From an uncultured Candidatus Saccharibacteria bacterium (GTDB lineage: Bacteria; Patescibacteriota; Minisyncoccia; Phycocordibacterales; UBA9973): a DNA stretch of 64,000 nucleotides. The notes beneath the pieces are model-generated. The model had not been told where the DNA came from. It saw only the letters and a program-made list of their open reading frames with translations, and searched no databases. The stretch is from NCBI GenBank assembly GCA_964527235.1, contig CAZGNC010000001.1:170344-234343 (forward strand), written 5' to 3'. Below are positions 6,910 to 58,430 of this stretch, piece after piece. A program made the translations under genes and the position numbers. Within the stretch, counting starts at the first letter, position 1, and every line of letters begins with the position of its first letter.

Positions 6910-6947
6910 GTGATAAATTATACCAATTTCTGTATATAAAAGACGTA

Positions 6948-6976
6948 GCCCCGCGGTAGCAGGGCTACGCGCGGGG
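6948..6976 (-). terminator. GC-rich hairpin plus T-run on the minus strand (terminator of the 56-aa island gene)
   Basis: gccccgcggtagc-agg-gctacgcgcgggg followed on the minus strand by cgtctttta. Confidence 0.45.
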
Positions 6977-6988
6977 CTGGTGATCAGA

Positions 6989-7159
6989 TCAACGCCAGTG
7001 TGCCTGGCCGTTGTAGCCACGGCGTTCGAGCGCGCGGCCTTCGTCTGGGGGCATCTTGAATGCGCCGAGGCTGGTGTAGGCGGTTGCCACTTCAGGTCGT
7101 GGCTGTTCGCCTGGGATGGTTGGCACGACCTTGTTTTCGGATGTGGTGCTGTCGGACAT
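6989..7159 (-). CDS. hypothetical small protein (56 aa) in GC-rich island 1
   Basis: SD GGAGGA 6 nt upstream of ATG; TTGACA-N18-CATAAT promoter upstream; hairpin terminator downstream; no family recognised (MSDSTTSENKVVPTIPGEQPRPEV...). Confidence 0.4.
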   Translation of the reverse strand: MSDSTTSENKVVPTIPGEQPRPEVATAYTSLGAFKMPPDEGRALERRGYNGQAHWR

Positions 7160-7202
7160 TGTGATCCTCCATGGGGAACGGGGTGGGGGTGTTCTGTGCT
7201 CA

Positions 7203-7262
7203 ATTATGCATATATAAGTACATATTGTCAAAGCTTGCCAAGTGGCGAAAAGAGTGTATAAA
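7203..7262. promoter_or_regulatory. divergent promoter region of island 1 (minus: TTGACA-N18-CATAAT; plus: TTGCCA-N16-TATAAA)
   Basis: AT-rich 60-bp gap between two divergent GC-rich ORFs; overlapping -35 elements tgtcaa/ttgcca. Confidence 0.35.
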
Positions 7263-7308
7263 TAAAAAAGGCGCAGGTGGGGTTCACTCTGACTTAGGAG
7301 GCGATTTC

Positions 7309-7617
7309 ATGTATGTATTGCTGAGGCAACCAGCGTTCGCGTTGGTGCAACACCCGAAGGGTATCGGGGATCCTGAAACTGCGAGGATCATCGAGTTCTT
7401 TCAGGCTCACCCGGGCGTAATGGTGATCCTGGTCAGGATCGGGTCTGTTCAGGAGAAAGAGCTTCGGAGTGTTTCTGAACAGACAGGCAAAGGGACGTTG
7501 GTTGTCGTACTCGAGTACAGTATGATTGGCAAGTCTCAGTACGTGACTAGCGCAATCAACCCAAGTGACGAAGTCCTCGCACAATACCTCCGAGACTATT
7601 TCGAGGGTGGGATGTAG
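7309..7617 (+). CDS. hypothetical protein (103 aa) in GC-rich island 1
   Basis: SD TAGGAGG 7 nt upstream of ATG; internal start of the 148-aa track ORF; MYVLLRQPAFALVQHPKGIGDPETARIIEFF...; no family recognised. Confidence 0.45.
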   Translation: MYVLLRQPAFALVQHPKGIGDPETARIIEFFQAHPGVMVILVRIGSVQEKELRSVSEQTGKGTLVVVLEYSMIGKSQYVTSAINPSDEVLAQYLRDYFEGGM

Positions 7618-8054
7618 TCTGGGCTTCTGCGTACCTCCCGTCGTCGAAGTAAGACGGCGGGAGGGGAAGGGAATGGTTCTTTTGTAAAAGTTAAATAGTG
7701 TGTTATCGCGGCCTCGGGAATTTATTCTCGGGGTTTTTTGGTGGAAAAATTTTGTACGCTGTTTGTGTGGTCTGGAAACAATCAAAAAGCGCCACTCCGA
7801 GGAGCGGCGCCGTACGACCGTTTGAAGGCTGGTCGTCTTACCTTTGCGCGAGCTTGTCAGCGCCATCGCCCGGTGAGGTATGGGAGACTCATACCCAGCA
7901 ACCGACCATAGGAGTAGTAGTAGTCGTGGGCATATTCCACCTCGCGGTTGCCCCTGACTTGCCAACTACGCAATGTGACAATCATTGTTACTTCCCACAC
8001 CACTATCATTCTTGCCTCCGGGTAGGGGGGGGTGAGTGAGAGTTCGCTACTGGC

Positions 8055-8252
8055 TCATTGAGCGATGAGGCCCCACAGACGAGTCAGAGCGAAATAGAAG
8101 ATACCAACCACCACGACAATGATGAGCAGTACTGCTAAACCCGCAGTCATGTCTTTGGCGGCCCTCTCGGCATCTTCTCCACAGAACCCCAGCATGCCGG
8201 GAATAAGTAAGGCGGGACATCCCGCCATCGCGAAAACCCAGAACCAGTACAT
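8055..8252 (-). CDS. small membrane protein (65 aa, two hydrophobic helices) in GC-rich island 1
   Basis: SD GGAGGG 4 nt upstream of ATG (MYWFWVFAMAGCPALL...LAVLLIIVVVVGIFYFAL); TTGACT-N17-CAATAT promoter at ~8290-8330. Confidence 0.45.
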   Translation of the reverse strand: MYWFWVFAMAGCPALLIPGMLGFCGEDAERAAKDMTAGLAVLLIIVVVVGIFYFALTRLWGLIAQ

Positions 8253-8381
8253 TAGCCCTCCAGGTAGATTAGTGGGATTGGGATGCACTACAATCTAGTT
8301 CATATATTGTCACATTTATACATAAAAGTCAAGTTAAACGAAACTGCAGGGGGCGCGAGAAAGCTTGCGGGGATTTGCATG

Positions 8382-8426
8382 CTTCGTACGCTGAGTTTAC
8401 GTGGGCCACAAAAGCCCTACAGAGAA
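8382..8426. repeat. partial third copy of the tRNA-Glu-associated conserved block, fused to a 12-nt tRNA-Glu 3'-end-like fragment
   Basis: cttcgtacgctgagtttacgtgggccacaa matches copies at 8970 and 30749 with 4 mismatches; ccctacagagaa matches the tRNA-Glu 3' region at 30913-30924. Confidence 0.4.
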
Positions 8427-8457
8427 ACGCGAGTACGCTTTCGGGAGGCTGGGTACG

Positions 8458-8853: not shown

Positions 8854-8969
8854 AAATTTAGTGTTATTTAATTTATTATTAATAAATAATTTTATAATAT
8901 GTAAAAAATGATGTCAATTTATCTAAACACCAGTAGAAGTCAGAATGTTGCAAGATACAATAAAATTTT

Positions 8970-9047
8970 GAGTGCTTCGCACGCAGAGTTTGTGTGGGCC
9001 ACAATAATTTGCTCGTCGTCACTCGCAAATTTTCCAGCCCCGGACTC
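8970..9047. repeat. conserved 78-nt block, copy 1 (3' side of tRNA-Glu-TTC)
   Basis: gagtgcttcgcacgcagagtttgtgtgggccacaataatttgctcgtcgtcactcgcaaattttccagccccggactc; 77/78 identical to 30749-30826; further similarity at ccgtcttcacaaa. Confidence 0.5.
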
Positions 9048-9096
9048 AGTTGTTTTTCTTGCTAGAAAAACATACTTCCGTCTTCACAAAGCACAG

Positions 9097-9124
9097 AAAA
9101 AGAGCACAGCAGTGTGCTCTTTTT
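9097..9124 (-). terminator. bidirectional intrinsic terminator hairpin after tRNA-Glu
   Basis: aaaaa-gagcaca-gcag-tgtgctc-ttttt: perfect 7-bp stem with A/T runs on both sides. Confidence 0.6.
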
Positions 9125-9139
9125 CATGTACGTGCTTTG

Positions 9140-9211
9140 TGACCCCACAGAGAATCGAACTCTGATTACCGCCTTGAAAAGGCGATGTCCTAACCGTTAG
9201 ACGATGGGGCC
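9140..9211 (-). tRNA. tRNA-Glu (anticodon TTC)
   Basis: Reverse complement GGCCCCATCGTCTAACGGTTAGGACATCGCCTTTTCAAGGCGG...TTCGATTC...TGGGGTCA folds as a cloverleaf with anticodon loop TTTTCAA. Confidence 0.85.
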
Positions 9212-9279
9212 GTATGGCCAAGTGTTTTACTTAGCAGAAATATAATAACATTTTTTATCTAAATTGCAAAAATGCGAAA

Positions 9280-9309
9280 CCCCCACCCGGCGTATTGCGC
9301 GGGCGGGGG
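9280..9309 (-). terminator. hairpin plus T-run terminating the CheY/2-TM operon on the minus strand
   Basis: cccccacccg-gcgtattgcg-cgggcggggg (9 of 10 bp paired), followed on the minus strand by tttcgcattttt. Confidence 0.45.
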
Positions 9310-9329
9310 CTGTGATGATTCCTGCTTGG

Positions 9330-9704
9330 CTAGCAGGGGGGTTGAGGGTTGATGATCGCCTCGATCTTCTCCTTGAGCAGATGTGGTGTGAACGGCTTGA
9401 CGATGTAGTTGTTCACGCCTGCCTGGACCGCCGCGATGATGTCTTCTTTCGCGCTGCTGGTAGTTACCAGCAGTATGGGTACCGACTTGCCGTCGGGACG
9501 AGCACGGAGCTTGCGAATGCACTCGATGCCGGACATGACTGGCATGTTCCAGTCGACGATGACGAAATCAATCGTCTTGTCGAACTTCGTGAGTGCTTCG
9601 AAGCCATTGCTGGCCTCGACGAAATCGACGTAGCCGATCTTCTCGAGCGAGGTGGTGATGATTCGGCGCATTGTGGCGGAATCATCAACGACGAGGAATT
9701 TCAT
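9330..9704 (-). CDS. CheY-like single-domain response regulator receiver protein (GC-rich island 2)
   Basis: 124 aa; canonical receiver residues DD (7-8), phospho-acceptor D in VIVDWNMP, T in LLVTT, K in IVKPF; no output domain. Confidence 0.75.
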   Translation of the reverse strand: MKFLVVDDSATMRRIITTSLEKIGYVDFVEASNGFEALTKFDKTIDFVIVDWNMPVMSGIECIRKLRARPDGKSVPILLVTTSSAKEDIIAAVQAGVNNYIVKPFTPHLLKEKIEAIINPQPPC

Positions 9705-9729
9705 GTTCTTCTCCTGTTGATGAGTGGCC

Positions 9730-9933
9730 TCAGCTCTTCTTCTTGAACAAACCCCATGCGGTCAGTCCAATCGCGATTACCGCCATGACGGTGAACAAGA
9801 TCGCTAGATCGACGGCGGGCTCTTTTTTGGTCTTGATTGCAAGGTGCCAAATCAATGCTGCCGTCGCCACGAGACATCCCGCAATCCATCCCATCAATAG
9901 AACACTGATGTTCTTGTTCGTCAATTTCGGCAT
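9730..9933 (-). CDS. small 2-TM membrane protein (67 aa), co-transcribed upstream of the CheY gene
   Basis: SD AGGAGG 7 nt upstream of ATG (MPKLTNKNISVLLMGWIAGCLVATAALIW...VMAVIAIGLTAWGLF); internal start of the 99-aa track ORF. Confidence 0.45.
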   Translation of the reverse strand: MPKLTNKNISVLLMGWIAGCLVATAALIWHLAIKTKKEPAVDLAILFTVMAVIAIGLTAWGLFKKKS

Positions 9934-10000
9934 GAATACTCCTCCTGGTTGTCGAAGGGGACAGGTCAGGGTGACCAATTCCCAGGTGCTTCCGATGTAA

Positions 10001-10029
10001 AGTATAGCACATTTTGACCCTTTTGTCAA
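10001..10029 (-). promoter_or_regulatory. sigma70-like promoter TTGACA-N17-TATACT (minus strand) with a palindrome over the -35 element
   Basis: Minus-strand TTGACAaaagggtcaaaatgtgcTATACT; inverted repeat TTGAC-aaaaggg-GTCAA overlaps the -35. Confidence 0.4.
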
Positions 10030-10136
10030 AGGGTATTTTATGGAAAAATTATAACCTTATGGTATAAAGAAAGTGAGTATTAGATAGTTCTGTTGGTGTA
10101 GGCAATCACCCCGCACAAGCATGGAGGTATTACGTC

Positions 10137-10322
10137 ATGCATCACGATCTTCCGGCAGGGCAAGAACACAAACGTTGCGAGCGTTGCGCTCGCAGTACTT
10201 TGCACGACGAGAATGTCTGCCAGGAGTGTGGACTTTCTGCCCCTTCAGGGCAAGTGCATGGGGCATCAATTTCCGGTGGCCAGGCGACTGCCTGGTCAAA
10301 TGGATCCGCAACCGACCAATGA
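10137..10322 (+). CDS. small zinc-ribbon-like protein (61 aa; CxxC...CxxC)
   Basis: SD GGAGGT 8 nt upstream of ATG; CERCARSTLHDENVCQECG. Confidence 0.4.
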   Translation: MHHDLPAGQEHKRCERCARSTLHDENVCQECGLSAPSGQVHGASISGGQATAWSNGSATDQ

Positions 10323-10332
10323 GGAAGAGAAG

Positions 10333-10527
10333 ATGGCTGACAGCAAGAATTCCGAAGGCGATGCGGTGAGAGGAGAGATCGAATCTTTGCGTGCAGATCT
10401 AGCGTCGTCTCCCAAGGATCCGATCGTGATTCCATCGCTCGATATCATTGGGCGATCACACCCTTTGCACCCTGATTTTGAGCCGACGGCTGTGTCGCTC
10501 ACCAATGATCGTCGTCTCACCAAGTGA
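10333..10527 (+). CDS. hypothetical acidic small protein (64 aa)
   Basis: SD GAGGAAGAG upstream of an internal ATG of the 104-aa track ORF; MADSKNSEGDAVRGEIESLRADL... Confidence 0.3.
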   Translation: MADSKNSEGDAVRGEIESLRADLASSPKDPIVIPSLDIIGRSHPLHPDFEPTAVSLTNDRRLTK

Positions 10528-10536
10528 GGTGATCGC

Positions 10537-10743
10537 ATGCCCCCACATTCGCACAAGAAAGGCAATAAGCCTCGCCGCGGAAAGAGGGAGCGCAGAGAGG
10601 CGAAACTGCAGGCCAAGCGATATGAAGAAGCAGCTCGGCGTCTTCGTGAACAAGGCCACAGCGGGAATATGAACGACGGCAGTCGGACGTACCAGGGTCC
10701 CACCTGGGGTCATCAAAGCCGGCGAAGGAGTAATTCGAAGTAG
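10537..10743 (+). CDS. highly basic small protein (68 aa, Lys/Arg-rich)
   Basis: SD GAGGTGA 5 nt upstream of ATG; MPPHSHKKGNKPRRGKRERREAKLQAKRYEEAARRLRE... Confidence 0.4.
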   Translation: MPPHSHKKGNKPRRGKRERREAKLQAKRYEEAARRLREQGHSGNMNDGSRTYQGPTWGHQSRRRSNSK

Positions 10744-10756
10744 AGGGAGAATCGAA

Positions 10757-10800
10757 GCGAGGGGCGTCAAACAACCGACGCCACCTCGCTTTTCCTTTTT
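10757..10800 (+). terminator. intrinsic terminator of the island-2 plus-strand operon
   Basis: gcgaggggcgtc-aaacaacc-gacgcc(a)cctcgc followed by ttttcctttttt. Confidence 0.55.
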
Positions 10801-10914: not shown

Positions 10915-10917
10915 CTT

Positions 10918-11844
10918 TTATTTCGTATGTATCGCCAGATATATATCTTCTAGCGCACGAACTGCATCACCTGCGGCTATGTTGTTCTGGTGATACAGGA
11001 TATCTGTGCAGTCACCAGCGGCCCAGATGCCTGGGGTTTCTGTCTTCTGATTCAAGGGGTTTATTTTTATGCGATTTTGTTCGTCCATAGGTACTACACC
11101 TTTCGCAAATCCTGTGTTCGGTATTTGCCCGATTTCTACGAATATTCCAGTAGCTTGCAGCTCTACAGTCTCGCCGGTGGTTTTGTCTTTATAGATTATA
11201 CCGTTGACGAATTGATCTCCAGTGACTTCTAGAATATCTACATTCTTTACTGCTTTCATTTTTGGATTCTTGAGAACTTTCTCAACAGTGACTTCGTCTG
11301 CTCTAAATTCTTCACTGCGATGAAGTAGTGTTACAGAATTGCAGTATGCTAGTAGTTGCGCAGCGCTTTCAAATCCTGCATTGCCTCCACCGATCACAAC
11401 TACGTCTTGCCCGTCGAAAAGTGGCCCATCACAAGAAGCACAGTAAGTTAGTCCCTTGTGTTCGAATTTATCTGCATTCTTAGCTTCAAGTTTGCGACGT
11501 CCACTACCGGCAGCTATGAGTATGGTTTTTGTATCAAAAGTTTTCCCTGATTCGATGCCCACAGTAAAAAGCTCACCATTCTTAGTGATAGAAGTGGCTT
11601 TCTCTCCTTGCTGTATTTCTAGGCTTTCTCCTGCGTTGGCTTCTACGTGTTTTCTTAAGTTCTCGGCGAGTTCGTTACCAGCGATAGATACCGAGCCTAT
11701 CCAGTTATATATCTTCTCAGACACGACAGATTGCCCACCCCATTCAGAAGTGATGAGTAATGTTTTTAGCTTTTTACGTGCAGCATAAACCGCCGCAGAA
11801 GTGCCGGCAGGTCCACCGCCAACTATTATCAAATCATGGGTCAT
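10918..11844 (-). CDS. trxB: thioredoxin-disulfide reductase
   Basis: 308 aa; FAD motif GGGPAG; redox-active CASCDG (CxxC); NAD(P)-binding GGGNAG. Confidence 0.85.
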   Translation of the reverse strand: MTHDLIIVGGGPAGTSAAVYAARKKLKTLLITSEWGGQSVVSEKIYNWIGSVSIAGNELAENLRKHVEANAGESLEIQQGEKATSITKNGELFTVGIESGKTFDTKTILIAAGSGRRKLEAKNADKFEHKGLTYCASCDGPLFDGQDVVVIGGGNAGFESAAQLLAYCNSVTLLHRSEEFRADEVTVEKVLKNPKMKAVKNVDILEVTGDQFVNGIIYKDKTTGETVELQATGIFVEIGQIPNTGFAKGVVPMDEQNRIKINPLNQKTETPGIWAAGDCTDILYHQNNIAAGDAVRALEDIYLAIHTK

Positions 11845-11883
11845 TTCTGTATTATAGCAGATACGTCAAGAACGTAGAAATTT

Positions 11884-22490: not shown

Positions 22491-22510
22491 AAGGTTTTCC
22501 ACATTTTGTT

Positions 22511-22539
22511 TTGACTAAAATTTTCTAAATATACATAAT
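22511..22539 (+). promoter_or_regulatory. sigma70-like promoter TTGACT-N17-CATAAT driving GC-rich island 3
   Basis: ttgactaaaattttctaaatatacataat, followed by a 5'-UTR hairpin tctccag...ctggaga (22546-22579). Confidence 0.4.
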
Positions 22540-22604
22540 TAAAGTTCTCCAGCATTCTCGAACTGGTTGAGACTGGAGATTCGCTCTTTCGTCGGAGGTT
22601 TCTC

Positions 22605-22703
22605 ATGGCCGCGAAGCTGAAGATGAGTCGGAAACACGGTGTCATCACCTGTGGCCGGAACCATCAGTGCGTCGGCGCCAAGCGCAATCGCCGCAACCGC
22701 TGA
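22605..22703 (+). CDS. basic 32-aa peptide with two Cys (MAAKLKMSRKHGVITCGRNHQCVGAKRNRRNR)
   Basis: SD GGAGGT 8 nt upstream of ATG; strong GC3 bias; followed by a 9-bp-stem hairpin agaccaccg...cggtggtct (22776-22805). Confidence 0.3.
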   Translation: MAAKLKMSRKHGVITCGRNHQCVGAKRNRRNR

Positions 22704-22831
22704 TGCCGCGGATCAACCAAAGGGAACGTTCGCCCCCGAACGCTCCGCCCTGGTAAGGGGAATCATGGGGGGTACAGACCACCGTCGCTTCGGCGCCGGT
22801 GGTCTCTCTCATTTATGGGAGATTTTAAATA

Positions 22832-22863
22832 TAAAAACAAACGCCGGCTCGAGGTGAGCCGGC
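22832..22863 (-). terminator. hairpin plus T-run terminator of the island-3 minus-strand gene
   Basis: gccggctc-gaggt-gagccggc with, on the minus strand, gtttgttttt downstream. Confidence 0.45.
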
Positions 22864-22894
22864 GGGACGCGATGGGGTTCGGTAGGCGTGGTGC

Positions 22895-23083
22895 CTACTT
22901 TTTTTTGTGGACAAACGACACGATCCACATGAGCCCTCCTAGGATCGCAAGGATTCCCAGGAGGAAAAAGTGCCAGAATGTGCCCAATGAGAACTTCGTC
23001 GGGCCGGGGATTGGGCTGTGCGGGCCCTGGTTGAGCTTTGAGTTGATGTTCTCAAACGGCACGTGATCCAGACGCATGTTCAC
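22895..23083 (-). CDS. small C-terminally anchored membrane protein (62 aa) in GC-rich island 3
   Basis: SD GAGGTGA 4 nt upstream of ATG; ...TFWHFFLLGILAILGGLMWIVSFVHKKK; terminator immediately after the stop. Confidence 0.45.
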   Translation of the reverse strand: MNMRLDHVPFENINSKLNQGPHSPIPGPTKFSLGTFWHFFLLGILAILGGLMWIVSFVHKKK

Positions 23084-23168
23084 CTCAGGTTGGGGTGCGA
23101 GTCTTTTCTTACTTTGACATAAAAAGCTTAAAAATCAAAACCCTTAGAGGTTTTCCACAGCTGACTAG

Positions 23169-23206
23169 TTGACTCTAGATACCCTATACCCTATAGTATA
23201 GGGTAT
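23169..23206 (+). promoter_or_regulatory. csoR promoter (TTGACT-N17-TATAGT) overlapping a perfect CsoR-type operator palindrome that reaches the start codon
   Basis: ATACCCTATA-g-TATAGGGTAT (23186-23206; 10-bp arms) preceded by a partial repeat ataccctat; the ATG follows ~8 nt after the -10, so likely leaderless. Confidence 0.55.
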
Positions 23207-23492
23207 GAAACACATACATAAACATAGTGCACAGAAGCATGGTGAGCCGAACGACAAGGCTCGTAAAGTTATAAATATGGCTAGTGGTAGTTTGGCGAAG
23301 ATTCCAGGAATGGTAGATGAGAATCGTTATTGCCCAGACATTATTCAGCAGATCGATAGTGTTGTCGGCCTACTTCACAGTGCTCGCAAAGAACTTCTCA
23401 AGGGTCATCTTGATTCTTGTATTGTTGAACAACTAAAAAGTGACAAAGATGGCGCGGTGAAAGAGCTATTGAAAATTTATAATATGCAATAA
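23205..23492 (+). CDS. csoR: copper-sensing transcriptional repressor CsoR (CsoR/RcnR family)
   Basis: 95 aa; NRYCPDIIQQIDSVVGLLHSARKELLKGHLDSCI contains the Cys-His-Cys Cu(I) ligand pattern of CsoR. Confidence 0.8.
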   Translation: MKHIHKHSAQKHGEPNDKARKVINMASGSLAKIPGMVDENRYCPDIIQQIDSVVGLLHSARKELLKGHLDSCIVEQLKSDKDGAVKELLKIYNMQ

Positions 23493-23493
23493 T

Positions 23494-25797: not shown

Positions 25798-25799
25798 TT

Positions 25800-26807: not shown

Positions 26808-26822
26808 AATAATATTTAAATT

Positions 26823-27230: not shown

Positions 27231-27258
27231 AACGAAAACCCCACGATCGACTGTGGGG
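27231..27258 (-). terminator. hairpin plus T-run terminator (minus strand) of the island-4 gene
   Basis: aaaacgaaaa-ccccac-gatcgact-gtgggg; on the minus strand the stem is followed by ttttcgtttt. Confidence 0.45.
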
Positions 27259-27276
27259 TCTCTCGTGGGGAGAGGT

Positions 27277-27471
27277 TTACTTTGAGTAATCCTCACCACT
27301 GATGGTGCTTTGGTGCGAGTGGTTTCTTCTCCACTCTACAGCGAAGATCGAAATGACCGCCAGGAGGCCAATTTCTATCAACCCAACACTGCCAATCATC
27401 CTGGCTATTAGAACCCAGGAGCCAATCGTCGCAGCCACGAAGAGCACGTATACAACAACTGCGGAGATCAT
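27277..27471 (-). CDS. small 2-TM membrane protein (64 aa) in GC-rich island 4
   Basis: SD AGGAGG 6 nt upstream of ATG; MISAVVVYVLFVAATIGSWVLIARMIGSVGLIEIGLLAVISIFAVEW... Confidence 0.45.
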   Translation of the reverse strand: MISAVVVYVLFVAATIGSWVLIARMIGSVGLIEIGLLAVISIFAVEWRRNHSHQSTISGEDYSK

Positions 27472-27504
27472 GAGAGCCTCCTGGATGTGAAGGACGTTTA
27501 TATA

Positions 27505-27533
27505 ATTATATTCTTGTGCTTTTTGCGCGTCAA
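27505..27533 (-). promoter_or_regulatory. sigma70-like promoter TTGACG-N17-TATAAT (minus strand) for the island-4 gene
   Basis: Minus-strand TTGACGcgcaaaaagcacaagaaTATAAT; the -35 abuts the nitroreductase stop codon. Confidence 0.4.
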
Positions 27534-28184: not shown

Positions 28185-28280
28185 AAATTTGACTTTAATT
28201 AATTATGGGTATATATTCATAATATACTAGGTCGAGGTTAAAAGCAAGTTTTTTTGTGTATAATTATAGGAATAATATTT

Positions 28281-28562: not shown

Positions 28563-28568
28563 AATCAT

Positions 28569-28928: not shown

Positions 28929-28949
28929 AATTTCATAGTATGAATAATC

Positions 28950-28975: not shown

Positions 28976-28988
28976 GATTGGGATGATC

Positions 28989-31087: not shown

Positions 31088-31116
31088 TTGACTTTTGGGT
31101 AATATACTATATAATA
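31088..31116 (+). promoter_or_regulatory. sigma70-like promoter TTGACT-N16-TATAAT driving the island-5 plus-strand operon
   Basis: ttgacttttgggtaatatactatataat ~80 nt upstream of the first island ORF. Confidence 0.45.
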
Positions 31117-31197
31117 TTATACAGTATATGTAGGTACATTGTAAGACCAGTCGGCCACAAACGGTTGATTGGAACCTGAACACAGGAGTCGCACCGC

Positions 31198-31386
31198 ATG
31201 ATGAGGGTTGTTATGAAGCCGAGAAAGACAACTCAAGAAACAATCACGTTTCTTCGAGAGGGGGTAGAAATCACTTTATCCTCTCCGGTTGTTGCCATCG
31301 TTCCCGACGAGGAACGGCTGGAGTTTCTTTCTGACTCGCGCGTCGTTATCAGTCCCCGCGTCGATATTGCGACGCTTGTGAGTTGA
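31198..31386 (+). CDS. hypothetical small protein (62 aa) in GC-rich island 5
   Basis: SD AGGAG 9 nt upstream of ATG; MMRVVMKPRKTTQETITFLREGVEITLSSPVVAIVPDEERLEFL... Confidence 0.4.
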   Translation: MMRVVMKPRKTTQETITFLREGVEITLSSPVVAIVPDEERLEFLSDSRVVISPRVDIATLVS

Positions 31387-31396
31387 ATCGCCACCT

Positions 31397-31420
31397 GGCC
31401 CCCGCGACGTCGCGGGGGCC
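31397..31420. repeat. perfect 24-nt palindrome GGCCCCCGCGACGTCGCGGGGGCC in the intercistronic gap (operator or RNA hairpin candidate)
   Basis: Self-complementary over all 24 nt; no T-run follows; sits 23 nt upstream of the next SD. Confidence 0.5.
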
Positions 31421-31443
31421 TCACTGCTTAAGGAGGATATCAC

Positions 31444-31689
31444 ATGCAGACCAGGATTGAAGTAACTATCCTCAGTGACGGGCGGGTGCAGGTGGATGAG
31501 AACGGGCAGAAGTCCGTGATCACTCCACAGTCGAATGGGTTCATGTTCGCGATGAATATCAACGGGGACTACTCCCTGACCATCAGCGATCCGAAGCCGG
31601 AGCCGGCGATCCTTCCACGTGTGCCCTTGTCGAGTCTCAGTTGCTTCGACGGGGGGTTGCTTTTTCCGGAGGGAGGTGGCAACCCATGA
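31444..31689 (+). CDS. hypothetical protein (81 aa) in GC-rich island 5
   Basis: SD AAGGAGGA 7 nt upstream of ATG; MQTRIEVTILSDGRVQVDENGQKSVITPQSNGFMFAMNINGDYSL...; stop overlaps the next start (ATGA). Confidence 0.45.
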   Translation: MQTRIEVTILSDGRVQVDENGQKSVITPQSNGFMFAMNINGDYSLTISDPKPEPAILPRVPLSSLSCFDGGLLFPEGGGNP

Positions 31690-31775
31690 TCCTGCTCTTG
31701 ATGTGGGTCATCGTGGCAATCTTCGGCGGGTGGCTCGTCATGCACTCTGCCGAGTGCAAGTGGGCCGACGAGTAG
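31686..31775 (+). CDS. 29-aa hydrophobic membrane peptide (MILLLMWVIVAIFGGWLVMHSAECKWADE), translationally coupled to the upstream gene
   Basis: ATGA start/stop overlap with the upstream ORF; single TM helix; below the 60-aa threshold of the ORF track. Confidence 0.35.
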   Translation: MILLLMWVIVAIFGGWLVMHSAECKWADE

Positions 31776-31791
31776 GTGTCGGCATGCAGTA

Positions 31792-31829
31792 GGGGTCTCG
31801 CGTTCGCGCGAGGCCCCGTTTTTGTTTTT
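31792..31829 (+). terminator. intrinsic terminator of the island-5 plus-strand operon
   Basis: ggggtctcgcg-ttcg-cgcgaggcccc followed by gtttttgttttt. Confidence 0.6.
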
Positions 31830-31884
31830 ATTTATTTTATATTAAAATTAATTTGGAACAATCAACCACCAACGGAGGTGCCAC

Positions 31885-32013
31885 ATGTTGGAGACGATAG
31901 TTGGTGTCCTGTTCGTGGCATCCTTGTGTGCCATTGTCCTGTATTTTCTGAGACGTGGTTGGCAGTTACTGAAAGAGATTGGGGATGCTCTTGAGCATCC
32001 GTTCAATGAATGA
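31885..32013 (+). CDS. 42-aa membrane peptide (MLETIVGVLFVASLCAIVLYFLRRGWQLLKEIGDALEHPFNE)
   Basis: SD GGAGGT 7 nt upstream of ATG; one TM helix; a weak hairpin plus T-rich stretch follows near 32036-32075. Confidence 0.35.
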   Translation: MLETIVGVLFVASLCAIVLYFLRRGWQLLKEIGDALEHPFNE

Positions 32014-32191
32014 CATCTTGAGGAATCGGCCCTGGCGCAAGCTAGGGCTTTCTCGTATAAAAATAAAACGCCTCACAGCTCAGAGAGCGCGAGGTGTTCT
32101 TGTGACGTAGTAAGACGTCGGCTTGATCTTGCCCGCCGAGCAATGGCTACGACGGGGTTGCGCGAGGTGCAAATAGCTTGCGAGATGTGAA

Positions 32192-32500
32192 CTATCCCAA
32201 GGCTTTCTTTACGAGAGCGCTCAAGATGATCACACCTGCGGCGACAATGAAGATCAGAGTCAGTGTTGCCGTTTCCGAAGCCTTGGGCTTGGTTTGGTTC
32301 ACAGGCTCCGGCTCTTTGTCTTCGCCGTTCCACCAGTCGTTTCCGAACACTGGTGCCTCCTTCTTGTCAGGGGTCTTCGTTACACGGTGTTCACCTGTAC
32401 TCCGCAGATGTTCTTCGAAGCCTTTCGGTCTGAGGTTCGTAACTTCAAGACCGAACGGTATTCTTCTTCTTTTTACCTTTCCCTTCTTCCTTTTTTTCAT
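32192..32500 (-). CDS. 102-aa protein with a Lys/Arg-rich N-terminus and a C-terminal TM anchor (tail-anchored)
   Basis: SD GGGAGGGA upstream of an internal ATG of the 118-aa track ORF; MKKRKKGKVKRRRIPFGLEV...ATLTLIFIVAAGVIILSALVKKALG. Confidence 0.4.
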   Translation of the reverse strand: MKKRKKGKVKRRRIPFGLEVTNLRPKGFEEHLRSTGEHRVTKTPDKKEAPVFGNDWWNGEDKEPEPVNQTKPKASETATLTLIFIVAAGVIILSALVKKALG

Positions 32501-32580
32501 CTGTATCCCTCCCGGCAGGGATGCGATTGACTTGCCCCGTCGGTACACGATTCGCCGGCGGGGTTGCTATGTCGGTGTGT

Positions 32581-32712
32581 TCATACTGAGCAACTTTGCA
32601 TCCACACCACGATGCAAACCACGACCAGAAGTCCGATCACGTACCCTGTGCTCACCGGCATGTTGTTGTACATCCATGAGAATGCTTTCTGGGCTTTCTG
32701 GATCTGAGTCAC
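32581..32712 (-). CDS. 43-aa TM peptide, GTG start (VTQIQKAQKAFSWMYNNMPVSTGYVIGLLVVVCIVVWMQSCSV)
   Basis: SD AGGAG 9 nt upstream of GTG; GC3-rich frame; preferred over the overlapping 113-aa Arg/Ser-rich track ORF. Confidence 0.3.
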   Translation of the reverse strand: MTQIQKAQKAFSWMYNNMPVSTGYVIGLLVVVCIVVWMQSCSV

Positions 32713-32742
32713 AATTCCTACTCCTGGTGTCTAGTGAAGGAG

Positions 32743-32811
32743 TCAGGACAGCAGACTGAAAAGTAGCCCTACTCCTAGGCCGACGGCCACCACGGTTCCG
32801 AGAATCTTCAT
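32743..32811 (-). CDS. 22-aa hydrophobic peptide (MKILGTVVAVGLGVGLLFSLLS); may extend to a 41-aa form starting at 32868
   Basis: Hydrophobic ORF between two TM-peptide genes on the minus strand; no clear SD; tentative. Confidence 0.2.
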   Translation of the reverse strand: MKILGTVVAVGLGVGLLFSLLS

Positions 32812-32904
32812 CAACGGTGTCTTGGTATTGACGCGGGTCTGCTGGAGTCTGTCTTGTGGCAACCTCATTCGGCGCCGGGGGGGCGCCCTCTTGGAGTGGT
32901 TCGG

Positions 32905-33069
32905 TCATGACTTCCTCTCCTTTGTTGAAGTGGTCCCAAAGAAGGCGCTAGGTGCCTCTCCGGGGTGGAGCACTTGCCACGAACCGTAGATCGTGGCGAA
33001 GCACAGCGTGATGAGCGCAATCGCGGTGAGAGCGCTCCTGAACAGGAACCCGCCAATCTGTTCTTTCAT
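32905..33069 (-). CDS. 54-aa TM protein (MKEQIGGFLFRSALTAIALITLCFATIYGSWQVLHPGEAPSAFFGTTSTKERKS)
   Basis: Strong GC3 bias; TTGACA-N16-TAATCA promoter-like sequence upstream; weak SD; ATGA overlap with the next downstream frame. Confidence 0.35.
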   Translation of the reverse strand: MKEQIGGFLFRSALTAIALITLCFATIYGSWQVLHPGEAPSAFFGTTSTKERKS

Positions 33070-33137
33070 TGGAAGGTGCTCGCTTTTTTGGATTCAATAA
33101 AATGATTACGTTTTCAACGCCTTTTGTCAATAGCTGG

Positions 33138-34214: not shown

Positions 34215-34266
34215 TTAGTAGATATTTTAGCATTTTTTTATAAGAAAAACTTTTATAAAACGAAAG

Positions 34267-34303
34267 AGCCACACGATGGTCGGTGTGACTCAATCGTGTG
34301 GCT
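34267..34303 (-). terminator. 11-bp-stem hairpin terminator downstream of the island-9 gene (minus strand)
   Basis: agccacacgat-ggtcggtgtgactca-atcgtgtggct with a T-rich run following on the minus strand (cttt cgttttat). Confidence 0.5.
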
Positions 34304-34324
34304 TTGTTTCTTTGTGAAGATGCC

Positions 34325-34639
34325 CTAGTTGTCGTCGGGCGTCTGGAGGGGGGCGTCGTGTTCGACGTCCTCCTTCTGCTTGGCGAGGGCGATTACTTCC
34401 GCCCACTTTTCGCCGAATTCACCATCTGCTTCGAGGCCCTCGACGGGAACCTCGAACTTGATGGCTGTCTTGATGTACACGTTGACCTGCGATGGGTCAA
34501 CCTCGGCGAGCTCGACCGTCTTGTCGAATTGTTCTCCGGCGACTCCATCCAGCTCGATGTCTTCCCACTCGATGTCGTCGTACGACGCTCCAAGTACGAG
34601 AACGGCGTTGACGAACTCCTTCCTTCTTGCCCAGTTCAT
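34325..34639 (-). CDS. acidic hypothetical protein (104 aa) in GC-rich island 9
   Basis: TTGACA-N17-TAATTT promoter inside the 3' end of the upstream exonuclease gene; MNWARRKEFVNAVLVLGASYDDIEWEDIELDGVAGEQ...; no family recognised. Confidence 0.4.
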   Translation of the reverse strand: MNWARRKEFVNAVLVLGASYDDIEWEDIELDGVAGEQFDKTVELAEVDPSQVNVYIKTAIKFEVPVEGLEADGEFGEKWAEVIALAKQKEDVEHDAPLQTPDDN

Positions 34640-34705
34640 GCGGGTTCCTGTGTTGAGGGTGAGGTACTTCAAAAACAAATTAACATACCATTGTGAGTCT
34701 GTCAA

Positions 34706-41307: not shown

Positions 41308-41335
41308 TTGACAGTATTTTTTTATATAGTAATCT
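41308..41335 (+). promoter_or_regulatory. sigma70-like promoter TTGACA-N16-TAATCT upstream of the island-6 gene
   Basis: ttgacagtatttttttatatagtaatct in the AT-rich gap after the ABC ATPase stop. Confidence 0.35.
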
Positions 41336-41382
41336 CAGATTAGGTTTCAAGTCCCTTTACTCAATGACACGGAGCGTGGGTT

Positions 41383-41826
41383 ATGAATGGCATCGTCCGC
41401 ATCGACAGAGAGCTTGTGGTGTCTGTTCACCCAATCGTCGTAGAGTTTCTTTCCCCCGAGATACAGAATACTGGGCCGGCAGAGTATCGTGTTGCATCTC
41501 TGTGGGGGGAGCTCGGTTTCGGTCGAGAGAGGTTGTCTGGAGATGATATACTGAAGATGTTGACCGAACTAGGGCTGATCAACTCCTGTCTTCGGTATCG
41601 TGATTTGCTTTTGATACAAAATACGGGCCCTGCATTCTTTCGACATGTGGCGCCCAAGGACCAAGAGCAAATCTCGGCTTGGGCATCTGCGTTTCGTGGC
41701 AAAGGTGGTCACACGTACGTTCCGTATTTGAGGTTGGATCGTGGCCCCGAGTTGCGTATTGGCTTCATGGACAGCAAGGTGAAGATATGGAACCAGGAAC
41801 GAGGGATCCATCGTTTCCGGGGGTGA
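41383..41826 (+). CDS. hypothetical protein (147 aa) in GC-rich island 6, with an internal sequence repeat
   Basis: SD GGAGCG ~10 nt upstream of ATG; repeat EIQNTGPAEYR vs LIQNTGPAFFR; no family recognised. Confidence 0.45.
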   Translation: MNGIVRIDRELVVSVHPIVVEFLSPEIQNTGPAEYRVASLWGELGFGRERLSGDDILKMLTELGLINSCLRYRDLLLIQNTGPAFFRHVAPKDQEQISAWASAFRGKGGHTYVPYLRLDRGPELRIGFMDSKVKIWNQERGIHRFRG

Positions 41827-41859
41827 ACCTCCTTATCTGTGAATAGTAGTTTGTAGTCA

Positions 41860-41900
41860 GACCCGGACAGGCGATAGCTTGTCCGGGTCGCTGTTTTATT
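41860..41900 (+). terminator. intrinsic terminator of the island-6 gene
   Basis: gacccggacagg-cgatag-cttgtccgggtc (11-12 bp stem) followed by gctgttttatt. Confidence 0.6.
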
Positions 41901-48265: not shown

Positions 48266-48364
48266 TCTAGATATACTTTTCTGGAGCACGGATATTTTTC
48301 TGGTGAAAAATTCCTCGTGCTCGCGCCGGTCGCGCTCGCAAGTCTCCCAAAAAGTATATCTAGA
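48266..48364. repeat. ~99-bp palindromic element, copy B, intergenic between rpmE and prfA; perfect 15-bp terminal inverted repeats flank the same ~58-bp core as in tsaD
   Basis: IRs tctagatatactttt / aaaagtatatctaga; core acggatatttttctggtgaaaaattcctcgtgctcgcgccggtcgcgctcgcaagtctc (about 55/59 identical to the tsaD copy). Confidence 0.6.
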
Positions 48365-56490: not shown

Positions 56491-56499
56491 AAAACTTAG

Positions 56500-56943: not shown

Positions 56944-56975
56944 TATGAAGAGGTGTTTGTAATTCAAAGTTTTAC

Positions 56976-57005
56976 TTGACTTTTAAGTATTTAGTATGGT
57001 ATACT
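56976..57005 (+). promoter_or_regulatory. sigma70-like promoter TTGACT-N18-TATACT upstream of the island-7 gene
   Basis: ttgacttttaagtatttagtatggtatact in the AT-rich gap after atpC. Confidence 0.35.
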
Positions 57006-57052
57006 GAAAAAGAAGTAGAACCACCTTCACCACCACAACTTGCGAGGTGATT

Positions 57053-57298
57053 ATGCCAGATGAGAATGAGGTCAACCACAACCCACCACTCCGACTGGAG
57101 AGCGGCACGGACGACTCGGTGGGATTTTCCGAGCTGATGGAGCTCTCGTACGGCTTAGATGAAAGAGAGTTCGTCACGTTGCTTGAGGTAACGGGAATTG
57201 TTCCTCCTCTGCCGGCCGGCATTTCCGAAGACGACGTGCTCGCGCTGGGCAGGCGCGCCGGTGAAGCAGCGCTGAAGAGAGTGAACAGACAGCGTTAA
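57053..57298 (+). CDS. acidic hypothetical protein (81 aa) in GC-rich island 7
   Basis: SD GAGGTG 3 nt upstream of ATG (MPDENEVNHNPPLRLESGTDDSVGFSELMEL...); a GTG at 57047 is an alternative start. Confidence 0.4.
   Translation: MPDENEVNHNPPLRLESGTDDSVGFSELMELSYGLDEREFVTLLEVTGIVPPLPAGISEDDVLALGRRAGEAALKRVNRQR
57086..57106 (+). repeat. 21-bp direct repeat, copy 1 (within codons ~12-18 of the island-7 ORF)
   Basis: ccactccgactggagagcggc; 20/21 identical to 57302-57322, which lies 4 nt after the ORF stop. Confidence 0.5.
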
Positions 57299-57301
57299 CT
57301 G

Positions 57302-57322
57302 CCACTCCGACTAGAGAGCGGC
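57302..57322 (+). repeat. 21-bp direct repeat, copy 2 (immediately after the island-7 ORF stop)
   Basis: ccactccgactagagagcggc; the two copies bracket almost exactly the ORF body. Confidence 0.5.
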
Positions 57323-57346
57323 TGTGGGGTGCTGTTAGTCACATAA

Positions 57347-57385
57347 AAGCCCGCATGACGATGTCTAGCGGGCTTCTGCTTTTCT
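57347..57385 (+). terminator. intrinsic terminator of the island-7 gene
   Basis: aagcccgc-atgacgatgtcta-gcgggctt followed by ctgcttttct. Confidence 0.6.
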
Positions 57386-57417
57386 AAAATTAAAAATATG
57401 CTAGAGTTTAAACCATT

Positions 57418-58092
57418 ATGTCTAAATTTTATGTCGTGGCGACGCCAATAGGAAACCTGGGAGATATAACTCTGCGGGCTATCGACACGCTCAAAAGTGT
57501 CGATGTTATTTTGTGCGAAGACACACGCGAGACGAAAAAGCTTTTAGATAAATACAATATCAAAAAAGAAACAATGAGCTATCATGCTCAGAGCAAGCTT
57601 TCTAAAACCGATAAAATTTTTGAGTTATTGAGAGATGGTAAAGACTTGGCATTAGTTTCAGATGCGGGTACTCCTACAATATCAGACCCTGGAGCTATGC
57701 TCGTGTCTAAAATACGCGAAGAATTTGGAAGTGAAGTCGAAGTAATGCCTGTGCCTGGTGCCTCGGCGGTTATAGCTGCACTTTCGGCTTCGGGGTTGCC
57801 AACTCATGAATTTACTTTCTTAGGATTTCTACCACACAAAAAGGGAAGAGAAACACTTTTTAAAGAAATAGCATCGTCTGACCGCACTATGGCGTTCTAT
57901 GAGTCACCACATAGAATACTAAAGACACTAGAATCACTGGTTAAATTTTGCCCAGAGAAAAAGGTTTGCATTGCTCGTGAACTTACAAAAATATACGAAG
58001 AATTTAAAACCGGTTCTCCAGCGGAAGTTTTGCAATACTTAGAAACAAATAAAGAAAAGCAAAGAGGGGAGTTTGTGGTTTTGGTAGCATAA
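57418..58092 (+). CDS. rsmI: 16S rRNA (cytidine1402-2'-O)-methyltransferase RsmI
   Basis: 224 aa; tetrapyrrole-methylase fold; N-terminus MSKFYVVATPIGNLGDITLRAIDTLKSVDVILCEDTR. Confidence 0.85.
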   Translation: MSKFYVVATPIGNLGDITLRAIDTLKSVDVILCEDTRETKKLLDKYNIKKETMSYHAQSKLSKTDKIFELLRDGKDLALVSDAGTPTISDPGAMLVSKIREEFGSEVEVMPVPGASAVIAALSASGLPTHEFTFLGFLPHKKGRETLFKEIASSDRTMAFYESPHRILKTLESLVKFCPEKKVCIARELTKIYEEFKTGSPAEVLQYLETNKEKQRGEFVVLVA

Positions 58093-58134
58093 AAGAGAAA
58101 CCGCCTAAAGAAGCGCGGTCGCTTCTCTAGGCGG
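58093..58134 (-). terminator. hairpin terminator oriented for the minus-strand island-8 gene (its stop codon lies inside the stem)
   Basis: ccgcctaaagaagcg-cggtc-gcttctctaggcgg (one mismatch); on the minus strand followed by tttctctttt. Confidence 0.5.
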
Positions 58135-58372
58135 TGGTACGATTCCCCAAGTTGGTGGGGTATTCCTCGTCTGAGGTGCCAACCCAGACGAAGAGCTTTC
58201 CTTCGAGCCGGTAGCGTTGGGTTCTACCCAACACTCTGCTGTCTTCTCCTCCGCGGGGTTGAGCGCCTGCTCTGAGCAATGTCAGAGCTTCAGCGGTGGA
58301 GACTTCCACCGCGCCGTCCAAGGTTTCTTGGGCGGCTAGCAGCTCATTCAAAGATCGATGGCCTTTCTGCAC
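58127..58372 (-). CDS. hypothetical protein (81 aa, GTG start) in GC-rich island 8
   Basis: SD AGGAGC 6 nt upstream of GTG; VQKGHRSLNELLAAQETLDGAVEVSTAEALTLLRAGAQPRGGEDSRVLG...; no family recognised. Confidence 0.4.
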   Translation of the reverse strand: MQKGHRSLNELLAAQETLDGAVEVSTAEALTLLRAGAQPRGGEDSRVLGRTQRYRLEGKLFVWVGTSDEEYPTNLGNRTTA

Positions 58373-58430
58373 GTTTAGGCTCCTGGCTGTAATTTACAGG
58401 TAGAGTACCACAAAAATATTAAAAAGTCAA

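Follow-up and report, generated by a model that had tools for sequence, protein, structure and literature searches.

Putative moron-like, GC-rich gene cassettes in the core-gene spacers of a Patescibacteria genome

Morons are phage-borne gene units with a promoter on one side and a terminator on the other, which interrupt a region that is contiguous in relatives and deviate in G+C content (PMC3714127; the concept of Juhala and Hendrix). Compositionally deviant DNA is also a feature of groundwater Patescibacteria, which carry many genomic islands, with up to 13% of genome length attributed to horizontal gene transfer (HGT); 83% of the transfers detected fall within the phylum, and genes for competence and pili are common (PMC12455944). 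Here we analyze a 64,000-nucleotide stretch from an uncultured, ultra-small groundwater member of this phylum (assembly GCA_964527235.1, contig CAZGNC010000001.1; ‘the window’), in which nine small GC-rich islands lie between intact host genes, as an original prediction, made from the letters of the sequence, had proposed.

The genomes of Patescibacteria, or Candidate Phyla Radiation (CPR) bacteria, are very small, and the lineage-specific genes in them mostly lack a known function. The nine islands are probably a flexible part of such a genome, consisting of about 14 ‘moron-like’ accessory cassettes exchanged at spacer hot spots that are used across the clade. One route of gene gain would thus be seen at base-pair resolution: ready-to-express cassettes in the spacers between core genes, at reused hot spots, with no integrase found.

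Composition, architecture and assembly of the islands

The 300-bp composition profile of the 64-kb window resolves discrete GC-rich patches against an AT-rich background. The nine intervals have a GC content of 49.0-54.6%, compared to 40.8% for the remainder of the window, and make up 12.2% of its length, close to the 12% estimated by eye. Trimmed to their transcribed parts, the islands reach 51-57% GC (z = 2.5-4.0 versus host 300-bp windows), and their cores 55-61%; the initial estimate of 55-60% against 35-40% for the host is true of these cores and overstates the contrast for whole intervals. The Karlin dinucleotide distance (delta*) between islands and host is 105e-3, versus 28.5±9 (maximum 59) in size-matched random host samples. 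Mean GC at third codon positions (GC3) is 0.65 in 22 candidate island open reading frames (ORFs) and 0.39 in 35 host genes (standard deviation 0.056, maximum 0.52), in keeping with the strong bias that had been predicted. Because GC3 and dinucleotide usage both differ, the shift, present in GC, GC3 and delta* alike, is real and goes beyond an amino-acid effect.

Twenty-four candidate island ORFs of 29-147 amino acids (aa) were called. GC is lowest at codon position 2 in 22 of these and highest at position 3 in 17, a pattern that supports coding in the called frames; further coding signal comes from one ORF, the CheY-like receiver of island 2, with a Pfam match and a dN/dS of 0.23, and from islands 6 and 7, whose proteins have homologues sharing conserved motifs. 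Hydrophobic segments of transmembrane (TM) length occur in 10/24, fewer than the ‘more than half’ first proposed. A signature resembling that of diversity-generating retroelements (A-specific depletion) was considered and rejected, as A and T at third positions are equally reduced in cassette ORFs.

Read from their sequence, the islands appear to comprise about 14 autonomous, self-contained transcription units, built on a common plan: a near-consensus sigma70 promoter of AT-rich DNA, then a GC-rich leader that carries a Shine-Dalgarno (SD) motif, between one and four small ORFs, and finally a hairpin terminator rich in GC. A -35/-10 pair was found in 12 of the approximately 14 cassettes by consensus scans and direct reading (sequence matches alone); cassettes 3b and 5b show no convincing pair, and the claim of a promoter in each island is weak for these two. 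Island edges host four of the seven promoter-like matches scoring 11 of 12 (at 7231, 10029, 27533 and 31088), as well as nearly all hairpins with at least nine pairs and at least five G-C pairs, and the GC-rich hairpins followed by T runs at cassette ends are the strongest terminator-like sites in the window. Motifs of the GGAGG/AGGA type precede island ORFs, so that both the terminators and the SD motifs of the prediction are recovered. Promoter segments have a GC content of 14-34% and the leaders that follow (29-80 nt) one of 43-62%; the composition therefore switches near the transcription start.

In islands 4, 6 and 9, the -35 hexamer starts at the first base past the stop codon of the upstream host gene, and the window's only three TAATTGAC sites are these TAA/-35 fusions (27529-27536, 34701-34708 and 58426-58433). 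As an insertion motif TAATTGAC was rejected, since three observed versus 2.5 expected occurrences amount to chance; the fusions more likely reflect compaction than a target site. The host genes that follow the terminators of islands 6 and 8 each possess an extended -10 element of their own (TGCTAnAnT).

In AT-rich genomes, patches of high GC that contain no long ORF classically turn out to be RNA genes, and contigs of metagenome-assembled genomes (MAGs) can be chimeric; an assembly or construction artefact was among the explanations first offered. Exact-protein look-ups in Logan single-run assemblies (SRR14271365, SRR14271366, SRR14271372, SRR14271373), however, place islands 1, 2 and 7 in the same host context. 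For island 2, three contigs (SRR14271365, SRR14271366, SRR14271372) are 100% identical to the window by BLAST, and two of them span the tRNA-Ser/island-2 junction. The exact island-7 protein lies between the ABC-transporter gene and gatB in three contigs (SRR14271365, SRR14271372, SRR14271373), and a contig from SRR14271372 has an island-1 ORF together with an ORF where the flanking UDG gene is expected, as judged by gene calls rather than alignment. In addition, MAGs of relatives obtained in other studies share this architecture at the corresponding sites. Rfam identifies only six tRNAs in the window at the gathering threshold, none within an island, and in islands 1 and 2 no match appears even at E<=1; structured-RNA genes were accordingly dropped as island content, and the codon-position pattern, SD motifs, Pfam match and protein-level homologues also argue against them. 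It is hardly credible that the islands arose as assembly chimeras or represent non-coding genes for structured RNA, and this explanation is largely refuted for the tested islands 1, 2 and 7.

Occupied and empty spacers in relatives, and the source of the cassettes

By its genes the host is a Paceibacteria/Nomurabacteria-like CPR bacterium. TrxB is 58-78% identical to proteins of Candidatus Nomurabacteria/Paceibacterota MAGs, and RmuC up to 89% identical to those of groundwater metagenome contigs, some from the Hainich aquifer. Genes flanking the islands are cellular (LeuRS, TsaD, FtsZ, FtsA, LysRS, MraZ, MraW, PBP, Mur ligase, CopA, RmuC, Obg, GatB, ATP synthase, PriA); the order LysRS-GreA-FtsA-FtsZ-TrxB-[variable]-UDG-NTP transferase-tRNA-Val-TsaD-LeuRS is kept across about 80 genomes, and FBA-GatB-...-Obg-MYG1-YqeY-Exo-RmuC in closer relatives.

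At the island-6 site, between the exonuclease gene and rmuC (Exo|RmuC), 5-30 bp separate the stop from the start codon in five relatives (loci L093, L094, L100, L104, L107), while the window and three others (L095, L096, L103) each hold a different cassette of 350-700 bp with its own promoter and terminator; that of L096 is not GC-rich. The tRNA-Ser/tRNA-Glu spacer (island 2) measures 16-181 bp in L037, L006, L039 and L005 versus 1.6 kb in the window. Immediately before the same tRNA-Glu promoter, L005 carries a further GC-rich cassette island, and in L004 the site spans 2.5 kb with a GC-rich patch. ABC|GatB (island 7) is reduced to 75 bp in L094. Downstream of RmuC (island 5), L093 has a gene for a 191-aa protein with 54% GC in a 40%-GC locus, and L107 one for a 296-aa protein with 62.5% GC in a 42%-GC locus; the two are homologous (35% identity, E = 1e-14) and absent from the window. 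L007 and L019 have GC-rich cassettes between FtsZ and TrxB. The comparison of synteny, proposed early on as a check, thus finds island sites either empty or differently filled, and since some relatives have empty spacers and others unrelated cassettes, the spacers are reusable hot spots with turnover. At the sites compared, the cassettes are precisely inserted in spacers reused as hot spots across the clade.

Two further observations concern these sites. In the closest relative (L093), the island-5 hot spot contains two tandem units of ~260 nt (11760-12290). Each has a TTGACT promoter, their leaders are alike and their GC-rich terminators the same, and neither has an obvious ORF; these may be duplicated small-RNA genes or mini-cassettes. 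A 10.6-kb block between Mur ligase and RmuC (22491-33137) is missing in L098 and L103, where both genes are neighbours. It contains copper resistance genes (CsoR-CopA-DsbD-cupredoxin), a nitroreductase, DUF134 and SnoaL genes, tRNA-Glu(ctc) and islands 3-5, and is a larger variable region of host-like GC that encloses micro-islands.

The cassette proteins are mutually unrelated (no resemblance among 22 compared), and a tblastn search of these 22 against about 170 relative loci returned only an island-7 homologue in L090 and a weak receiver match. Apart from the CheY-like receiver of cassette 2a, no Pfam, PHROG, PADLOC or NCBIfam family was found for them. The prediction, which named a CheY-like receiver and a zinc ribbon, had counted at least 25 small proteins outside any known family; three can be placed, namely the receiver and the island-6 and island-7 proteins, the last two in uncharacterised families.

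The receiver matches Pfam Response_reg (PF00072, 5.6e-27, residues 4-115), with CheY as the best NCBIfam model (118 bits, below the cut-off of 189), and homologues at 65-75% identity are annotated as chemotaxis CheY. Two of these sit in flagellin-FliD-FliS-FlgM-CheY clusters; the one with DNA available lies on a 64%-GC contig, with a gene GC3 of 0.79 compared to 0.77 for the island gene. The ultimate source of this CheY is therefore a GC-rich motile bacterium, and CheY is the only cassette gene with a clear ultimate origin outside the lineage. No chemotaxis or flagellar partner is present in the cassette, where its sole neighbour is a 67-aa TM ORF.

If all islands had such a history, the cassettes would be recent, unameliorated imports from one or a few high-GC bacteria, such as the organism on which the CPR cell lives. 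The 65-72% identity of CheY to proteins of flagellin-FliD-FliS-FlgM clusters (on ~64%-GC contigs, some named Gemmatimonadota), the closeness of the two GC3 values and the distance of the islands' dinucleotide signature from that of the host are all consistent with this proposal. However, one of the closest relatives of the island CheY (L180, 74% identity, GC3 0.71) lies on a contig that shares the island terminator and tRNA-Glu promoter: CheY is 78% identical at the nucleotide level (dS 0.74, dN/dS 0.23), the ~100 nt downstream (terminator and tRNA-Glu promoter) about 97%, and the upstream TM ORF is unalignable. L180 therefore represents another CPR-type genome, the taxonomy of this and several other homologue-bearing contigs being inferred from gene content and composition only, and it seems to carry a mosaic of the same island. 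Between L180 (1-740) and the window (9190-9960), similarity within CheY is higher in the first half than in the second, which suggests recombination breakpoints within cassettes.

The island-6 and island-7 families also speak against one high-GC donor. The island-6 protein has three homologues (P0226-P0228, 45-53% identity) with the invariant motif VPVEGLEADG.FG..WAEV.AL; the two that could be located (L177, L179) have 55-58% GC and a GC3 of 0.63-0.65 in contexts of 34.5-35% GC, where other genes have a GC3 of 0.14-0.33. The island-7 protein belongs to an uncharacterised family with 104 representatives (AlphaFold2 model, pLDDT 91). Its best homologue (L090, 43% identity) occupies the same FtsX-ABC|GatB site behind a conserved promoter, with a GC of 0.52 and a GC3 of 0.62 between flanks of 0.40 and 0.35; another member is an islet of 54% GC beside rpsB-tsf (L171; genome GC 40%), and a third, in a 49%-GC contig whose neighbouring genes mostly have 52-53% GC (L174), does not stand out. 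Relatives with the same locus and the same composition, which the original prediction took as a sign of native rather than foreign islands, thus exist for island 7 (L090) and for the CheY cassette (L180).

No located homologue of the island-6 or island-7 protein resides in a high-GC genome: they are GC-rich islets in AT-rich genomes (L090, L171, L177, L179) or lie at about genome GC (L174), and the two island-6 contexts are still more AT-rich than the window. The promoters (14-34% GC) are of host type, the units are tidy rather than random fragments, and the proteins have no family in common. Of the idea of a cassette family from a high-GC donor, the discrete, compositionally foreign units stand; the unrelated proteins and AT-rich promoters speak against the rest. 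CheY is the only gene that fits direct import from one GC-rich donor, which as a general account is quite unlikely. The cassettes look more like members of a gene pool that may circulate among Patescibacteria-type genomes than fresh imports from one donor.

A second alternative is that the cassettes are native, vertically inherited and fast-evolving genes, whose high GC is actively maintained, for example through GC-biased gene conversion at recombination hot spots or selection acting on the transcript. This would fit the syntenic island-7 homologue of L090, which keeps its promoter and GC excess despite saturated synonymous sites, the retention of the CheY cassette beside the tRNA-Glu promoter in L180, the homologous GC-rich gene downstream of RmuC in L093 and L107, and the apparent coincidence of the GC-rich block with the transcribed region. 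It does not fit a patchy, multi-site distribution: sites are empty or hold non-homologous occupants among close relatives, family members occur at unrelated positions (beside rpsB-tsf in L171, elsewhere in L177 and L179), the flanking core genes show no rise in GC, and CheY clearly originates outside the lineage. We consider this alternative unlikely.

Exchange of acquired cassettes has its own difficulties, and several points weigh against it. Relatives cover the sites of islands 1, 2, 5, 6 and 7 of the nine, and junction support from independent assemblies covers islands 1, 2 and 7. No near-identical cassette was found in a different species or on a mobile element. The island-6 and island-7 homologues are saturated synonymously (pS, the proportion of synonymous differences, 0.74-0.83), yet have a GC3 of 0.56-0.76 in genomes with a GC3 of 0.17-0.39; under the AT bias of these hosts, divergence in place should have erased the GC excess, and a simple ‘acquire then ameliorate’ scenario does not predict its retention. 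The search for a donor pool found no homologue in 20-kb loci of high-GC Paceibacteria relatives (50-57% GC), and these relatives lack AT-rich consensus promoters upstream of genes. As donors they are unsupported, their upstream regions being neither AT-rich nor furnished with a consensus promoter. The GC range of the clade within the same habitats is wide, as shown by Paceibacteria-type loci with RmuC 62-75% identical to that of the window (L106-L170; genomic GC 38-57%).

The persistent GC excess is an anomaly against which models of amelioration, biased gene conversion and gene pools in uncultivated bacteria can be tested. One possible, if doubtful, extension is a common stock of ‘transcript-shaped’ GC-rich mini-cassettes among Patescibacteria, each inserted as a block that runs from -35 hexamer to terminator, in three cases directly past an upstream stop codon, and keeping ~52-58% GC in 34-42% GC genomes despite synonymous saturation. 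If true, this would need a cassette reservoir (such as an unsampled higher-GC extrachromosomal element), recombinase-free exchange, or a maintenance process (for example GC-biased conversion at hot spots or RNA-mediated copying), so far unrecognised and specific to the flexible genome of these ultra-small symbionts.

In the reading that we favour, in which accessory cassettes are exchanged at spacer hot spots, they would be gained and swapped by horizontal transfer, mostly among Patescibacteria and with no dedicated recombinase. Natural transformation, followed by homologous recombination in the conserved flanks, may provide the route, and illegitimate recombination the first insertions. At least CheY came ultimately from a GC-rich flagellated bacterium; others belong to families in which the homologues that could be located are, for the most part, GC-rich islets within AT-rich genomes. 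The cassette products (small proteins of membrane, secreted or regulatory type) might serve cell-surface, host-interaction or phage-interaction functions with fast turnover: ~40% are small membrane peptides which, in an episymbiont, are the class most likely to act at the contact with host cell or phage.

Whether phages brought the cassettes can be judged from several searches. A promoter-gene-terminator unit with deviant GC is the textbook design of a moron (PMC3714127), and two islands adjoin tRNA genes; the islands might therefore be remnants of prophages or degraded mobile elements, as true phage morons left behind. However, PHROG yields no match except the generic receiver domain, 2.9 million viral contigs contain no relative of three cassette proteins, and viral structure models give no structural match. 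The 64-kb window has no phage structural, integrase or repressor genes, and Pfam identifies no integrase, transposase or other recombinase among its about 50 host ORFs, in agreement with what had been predicted; RmuC is a conserved host gene, present also in relatives without islands. As also predicted, two islands lie 5' of tRNA-Glu genes; all tRNA-associated islands (tRNA-Glu twice, tRNA-Ser) are upstream of tRNA 5' ends rather than at 3' ends, and no duplicated tRNA fragment was found at the islands. Neither shared inverted-repeat elements at cassette ends nor flanking repeats or target-site duplications consistent across islands were found, the sole exception being a 12-nt match at island 3. 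PADLOC models of anti-phage defence gave 0 matches for 10 cassette proteins. A prophage origin is very improbable.

Cassettes and neighbouring features along the window

Island 1 holds three cassettes, named, like the others, by island number and letter. Cassette 1a (minus strand, 6943..7231) has the promoter TTGACA-17-CATAAT at 7231-7203 (11 of 12), an SD GGAGG, a 56-aa ORF at 7159-6989 (GC1/2/3 = 0.63/0.56/0.68; no Pfam match) and a 12-pair hairpin terminator at 6970-6943. In cassette 1b (plus strand, 7235..7735), the promoter TTGCCA-16-TATAAA (7235-7262, read from sequence) and an SD AGGAGG precede a 102-aa ORF (7309-7617, GC3 0.63), followed by a hairpin at 7634-7664 (read from sequence) and a terminator-like site at 7710-7735; the exact protein is found on Logan contig L087, and no match exists in Pfam, PHROG, PADLOC or NCBIfam. 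Cassette 1c (minus strand, 7788..8332) runs from TTGACT-17-CAATAT (8332-8304) to a terminator at 7811-7788 and encodes proteins of 65 aa (8252-8055, two-TM, from its TM-length segments) and 50 aa (8009-7857), both with GGAGG upstream. The right end originally assigned to this island (8345-8450) is a partial copy of a host repeat linked to tRNA-Glu and not cassette DNA.

That repeat is a conserved element of ~170 nt, directly 3' of both tRNA-Glu genes on the minus strand (8967-9138 and 30746-30908), with an 88-nt core 95% identical between the two copies and a partial third copy at 8374-8411. No Rfam family matched it; among the possibilities are a co-transcribed small RNA and a module for processing or termination, copied along with the tRNA.

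The CheY cassette 2a (minus strand, 9280..10029) starts at TTGACA-17-TATACT with an upstream TG (10029-10001, 11 of 12) and encodes the 67-aa two-TM protein (9933-9730) and the 124-aa receiver (9704-9330); its hairpin terminator (9309-9280, read from sequence) abuts the tRNA-Glu promoter (9270-9242). Cassette 2b (plus strand, 10023..10795) has a promoter-like site at 10023-10052, TGGTATAAA at 10060-10068, and three ORFs, each with an SD: a 61-aa zinc ribbon (10137-10322; weak double-zinc-ribbon match, 8.7e-4), 64 aa (10333-10527) and a very basic 68 aa (10537-10743). A hairpin at about 10752-10789 with a T run ends it 38 nt before tRNA-Ser.

Cassette 3a (plus strand, 22511..22899) comprises the promoter TTGACT-17-CATAAT (22511-22539), an SD GGAGG, a basic 32-aa ORF (22605-22703, GC3 0.79) and a terminator-like site at 22881-22899. 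Cassette 3b (minus strand, 22842..23136), for which a poor -35/-10 candidate only was found, encodes a 60-aa protein with one TM-length segment (23077-22895, GC3 0.75) and has a terminator at 22864-22842. An exact 12-nt direct repeat, AGGTTTTCCACA, brackets island 3 (22492-22503 and 23148-23159), with a chance of about 0.02 before correction for nine islands. It may represent microhomology used for insertion; no such bracketing repeat occurs at the other islands.

Cassette 4 (minus strand, 27235..27533) begins directly after the nitroreductase stop codon with TTGACG-17-TATAAT (27533-27505, 11 of 12) and contains an SD, a 64-aa two-TM ORF (27471-27277) and a terminator (27262-27235). Cassette 5a (plus strand, 31088..31817) has the promoter TTGACT-16-TATAAT (31088-31115, 11 of 12), 104 nt upstream of the tRNA-Glu(ctc) 5' end, ORFs of 57-62 aa (31213-31386), 81 aa (31444-31689) and 29 aa (31686-31775; TM, GC3 0.93), and an 11-pair terminator (31792-31817). 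In cassette 5b (plus strand, 31830..32055), an AT-rich upstream stretch and an SD GGAGG precede a 42-aa ORF with one TM-length segment (31885-32013), and a hairpin lies at about 32028-32050 (read from sequence). Cassette 5c (minus strand, 32060..33130), whose promoter TTGACA-17-AATCAT (33130-33102) adjoins RmuC, has four ORFs (33069-32905, 32868-32743, 32712-32581 and 32500-32192; GC3 0.57-0.71) for TM peptides of 54, 41 and 43 aa and a 102-aa protein, basic at its N-terminus and with a TM segment at its C-terminus.

The promoter of cassette 6 (minus strand, 34266..34705) directly follows the exonuclease stop, with the TAATTGAC junction at 34701-34708; an acidic 104-aa ORF (34639-34325, GC3 0.76) and a terminator (34291-34266) follow, past which lies a new TGCTAAAAT -10 element for RmuC. 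Cassette 7 (plus strand, 41308..41889) consists of TTGACA-16-TAATCT (41308-41335), the 147-aa ORF of the uncharacterised family (41383-41826) and a 13-pair terminator (41860-41889). Cassette 8 (plus strand, 56976..57385) has the promoter TTGACT-18-TATACT with an upstream TG (56976-57005), an acidic 81-aa ORF (57053-57298, GC3 0.66) and a hairpin with a T run (about 57349-57378). A 21-nt direct repeat that had been placed around the island-7 ORF is inside island 8: its copies (20/21 identical) lie in the 5' part of the ORF (57086-57106) and just past the stop (57302-57322). Cassette 9 (minus strand, 58100..58430) starts directly after the stop codon of the upstream host gene with TTGACT-17-TACTCT (58430-58402), encodes an 81-aa protein from a GTG start (58372-58127, GC3 0.62) and ends in a 16-pair terminator (58135-58100).

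At the left edge of the window, an ORF at 81-608 has a GGDEF diguanylate-cyclase domain, which, taken with the orphan CheY-like receiver, may point to some capacity for signalling in this reduced genome. An element resembling repetitive extragenic palindromes or miniature inverted-repeat transposable elements (…ACGGATATTTTTCTGCTGAAAAATTCCTCGTGCTCGCGCCG…) occurs inside the TsaD ORF (4743-4844) and after rpmE (48278-48340), the copies being 92% identical; the tsaD-internal copy is bracketed by a perfect 23-nt inverted repeat, and a related piece lies in the tRNA spacer of L005 (about 11660-11690).

Comparison with known systems

The phage moron appears to be the closest known concept. Like morons, the cassettes are autonomous units with a sigma70-type promoter and a factor-independent terminator, lie between genes adjacent in relatives, deviate in G+C and have no recombinase of their own; a moron can move as a functional cassette by recombination. 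Four of five moron features are found here, contiguity in relatives being shown at Exo|RmuC, tRNA-Ser|tRNA-Glu and ABC|GatB (L094). The fifth, residence in a phage or prophage, is not, as the flanks are conserved cellular core genes in conserved synteny; the cassettes therefore work like morons and are not phage morons. Unlike these, they belong to the chromosome of a cell, with ftsZ and genes for aminoacyl-tRNA synthetase, ATP synthase and tRNAs around them, take up 12% of 64 kb, are GC-richer than the host every time and show no link to phage proteins.

Integron cassettes, too, are small, mostly with a single ORF whose function is unknown, and form compositionally distinct arrays at a hot spot. 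They are, however, promoterless, flanked by attC sites and dependent on IntI, whereas the window cassettes have their own promoter and terminator, and no flanking repeats, shared inverted-repeat ends or integrase were found with them. Chromosomal HGT hot spots, or ‘islets’, between core genes and often near tRNAs, which concentrate gene gain and loss and in many cases lack an identifiable mobile element, were reportedly described by Oliveira, Touchon and Rocha in 2017; in contrast to these, the window units are much smaller, uniform in design and consistently GC-enriched. Integrase-borne genomic islands differ in having an integrase at one end and in inserting at tRNA 3' ends with flanking direct repeats. 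Loci for type I toxin-antitoxin systems and small membrane peptides share the intergenic position, the stand-alone promoter and terminator, hydrophobic peptides of 29-67 aa and long structured leaders, but more than half of the cassette ORFs are soluble, and the GC shift and hot-spot turnover are foreign to such loci.

The islands of groundwater Patescibacteria (PMC12455944) come from the same phylum and type of habitat, are compositionally deviant and acquired, mostly by transfer within the phylum, and competence and pili have been proposed as their route. Detected with IslandViewer, they measure 2.7-45 kb, in contrast to the single operons of 0.3-2 kb found here. The words ‘promoter’, ‘intergenic’ and ‘tRNA’ are absent from the main text of that study, and promoter/terminator cassettes of 0.3-2 kb, with spacer-precise insertion and reuse of hot spots, do not appear to be described in it. 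Since the cassettes are smaller than the islands that island-finding tools report, their contribution, 12% of this window, is probably under-counted in surveys.

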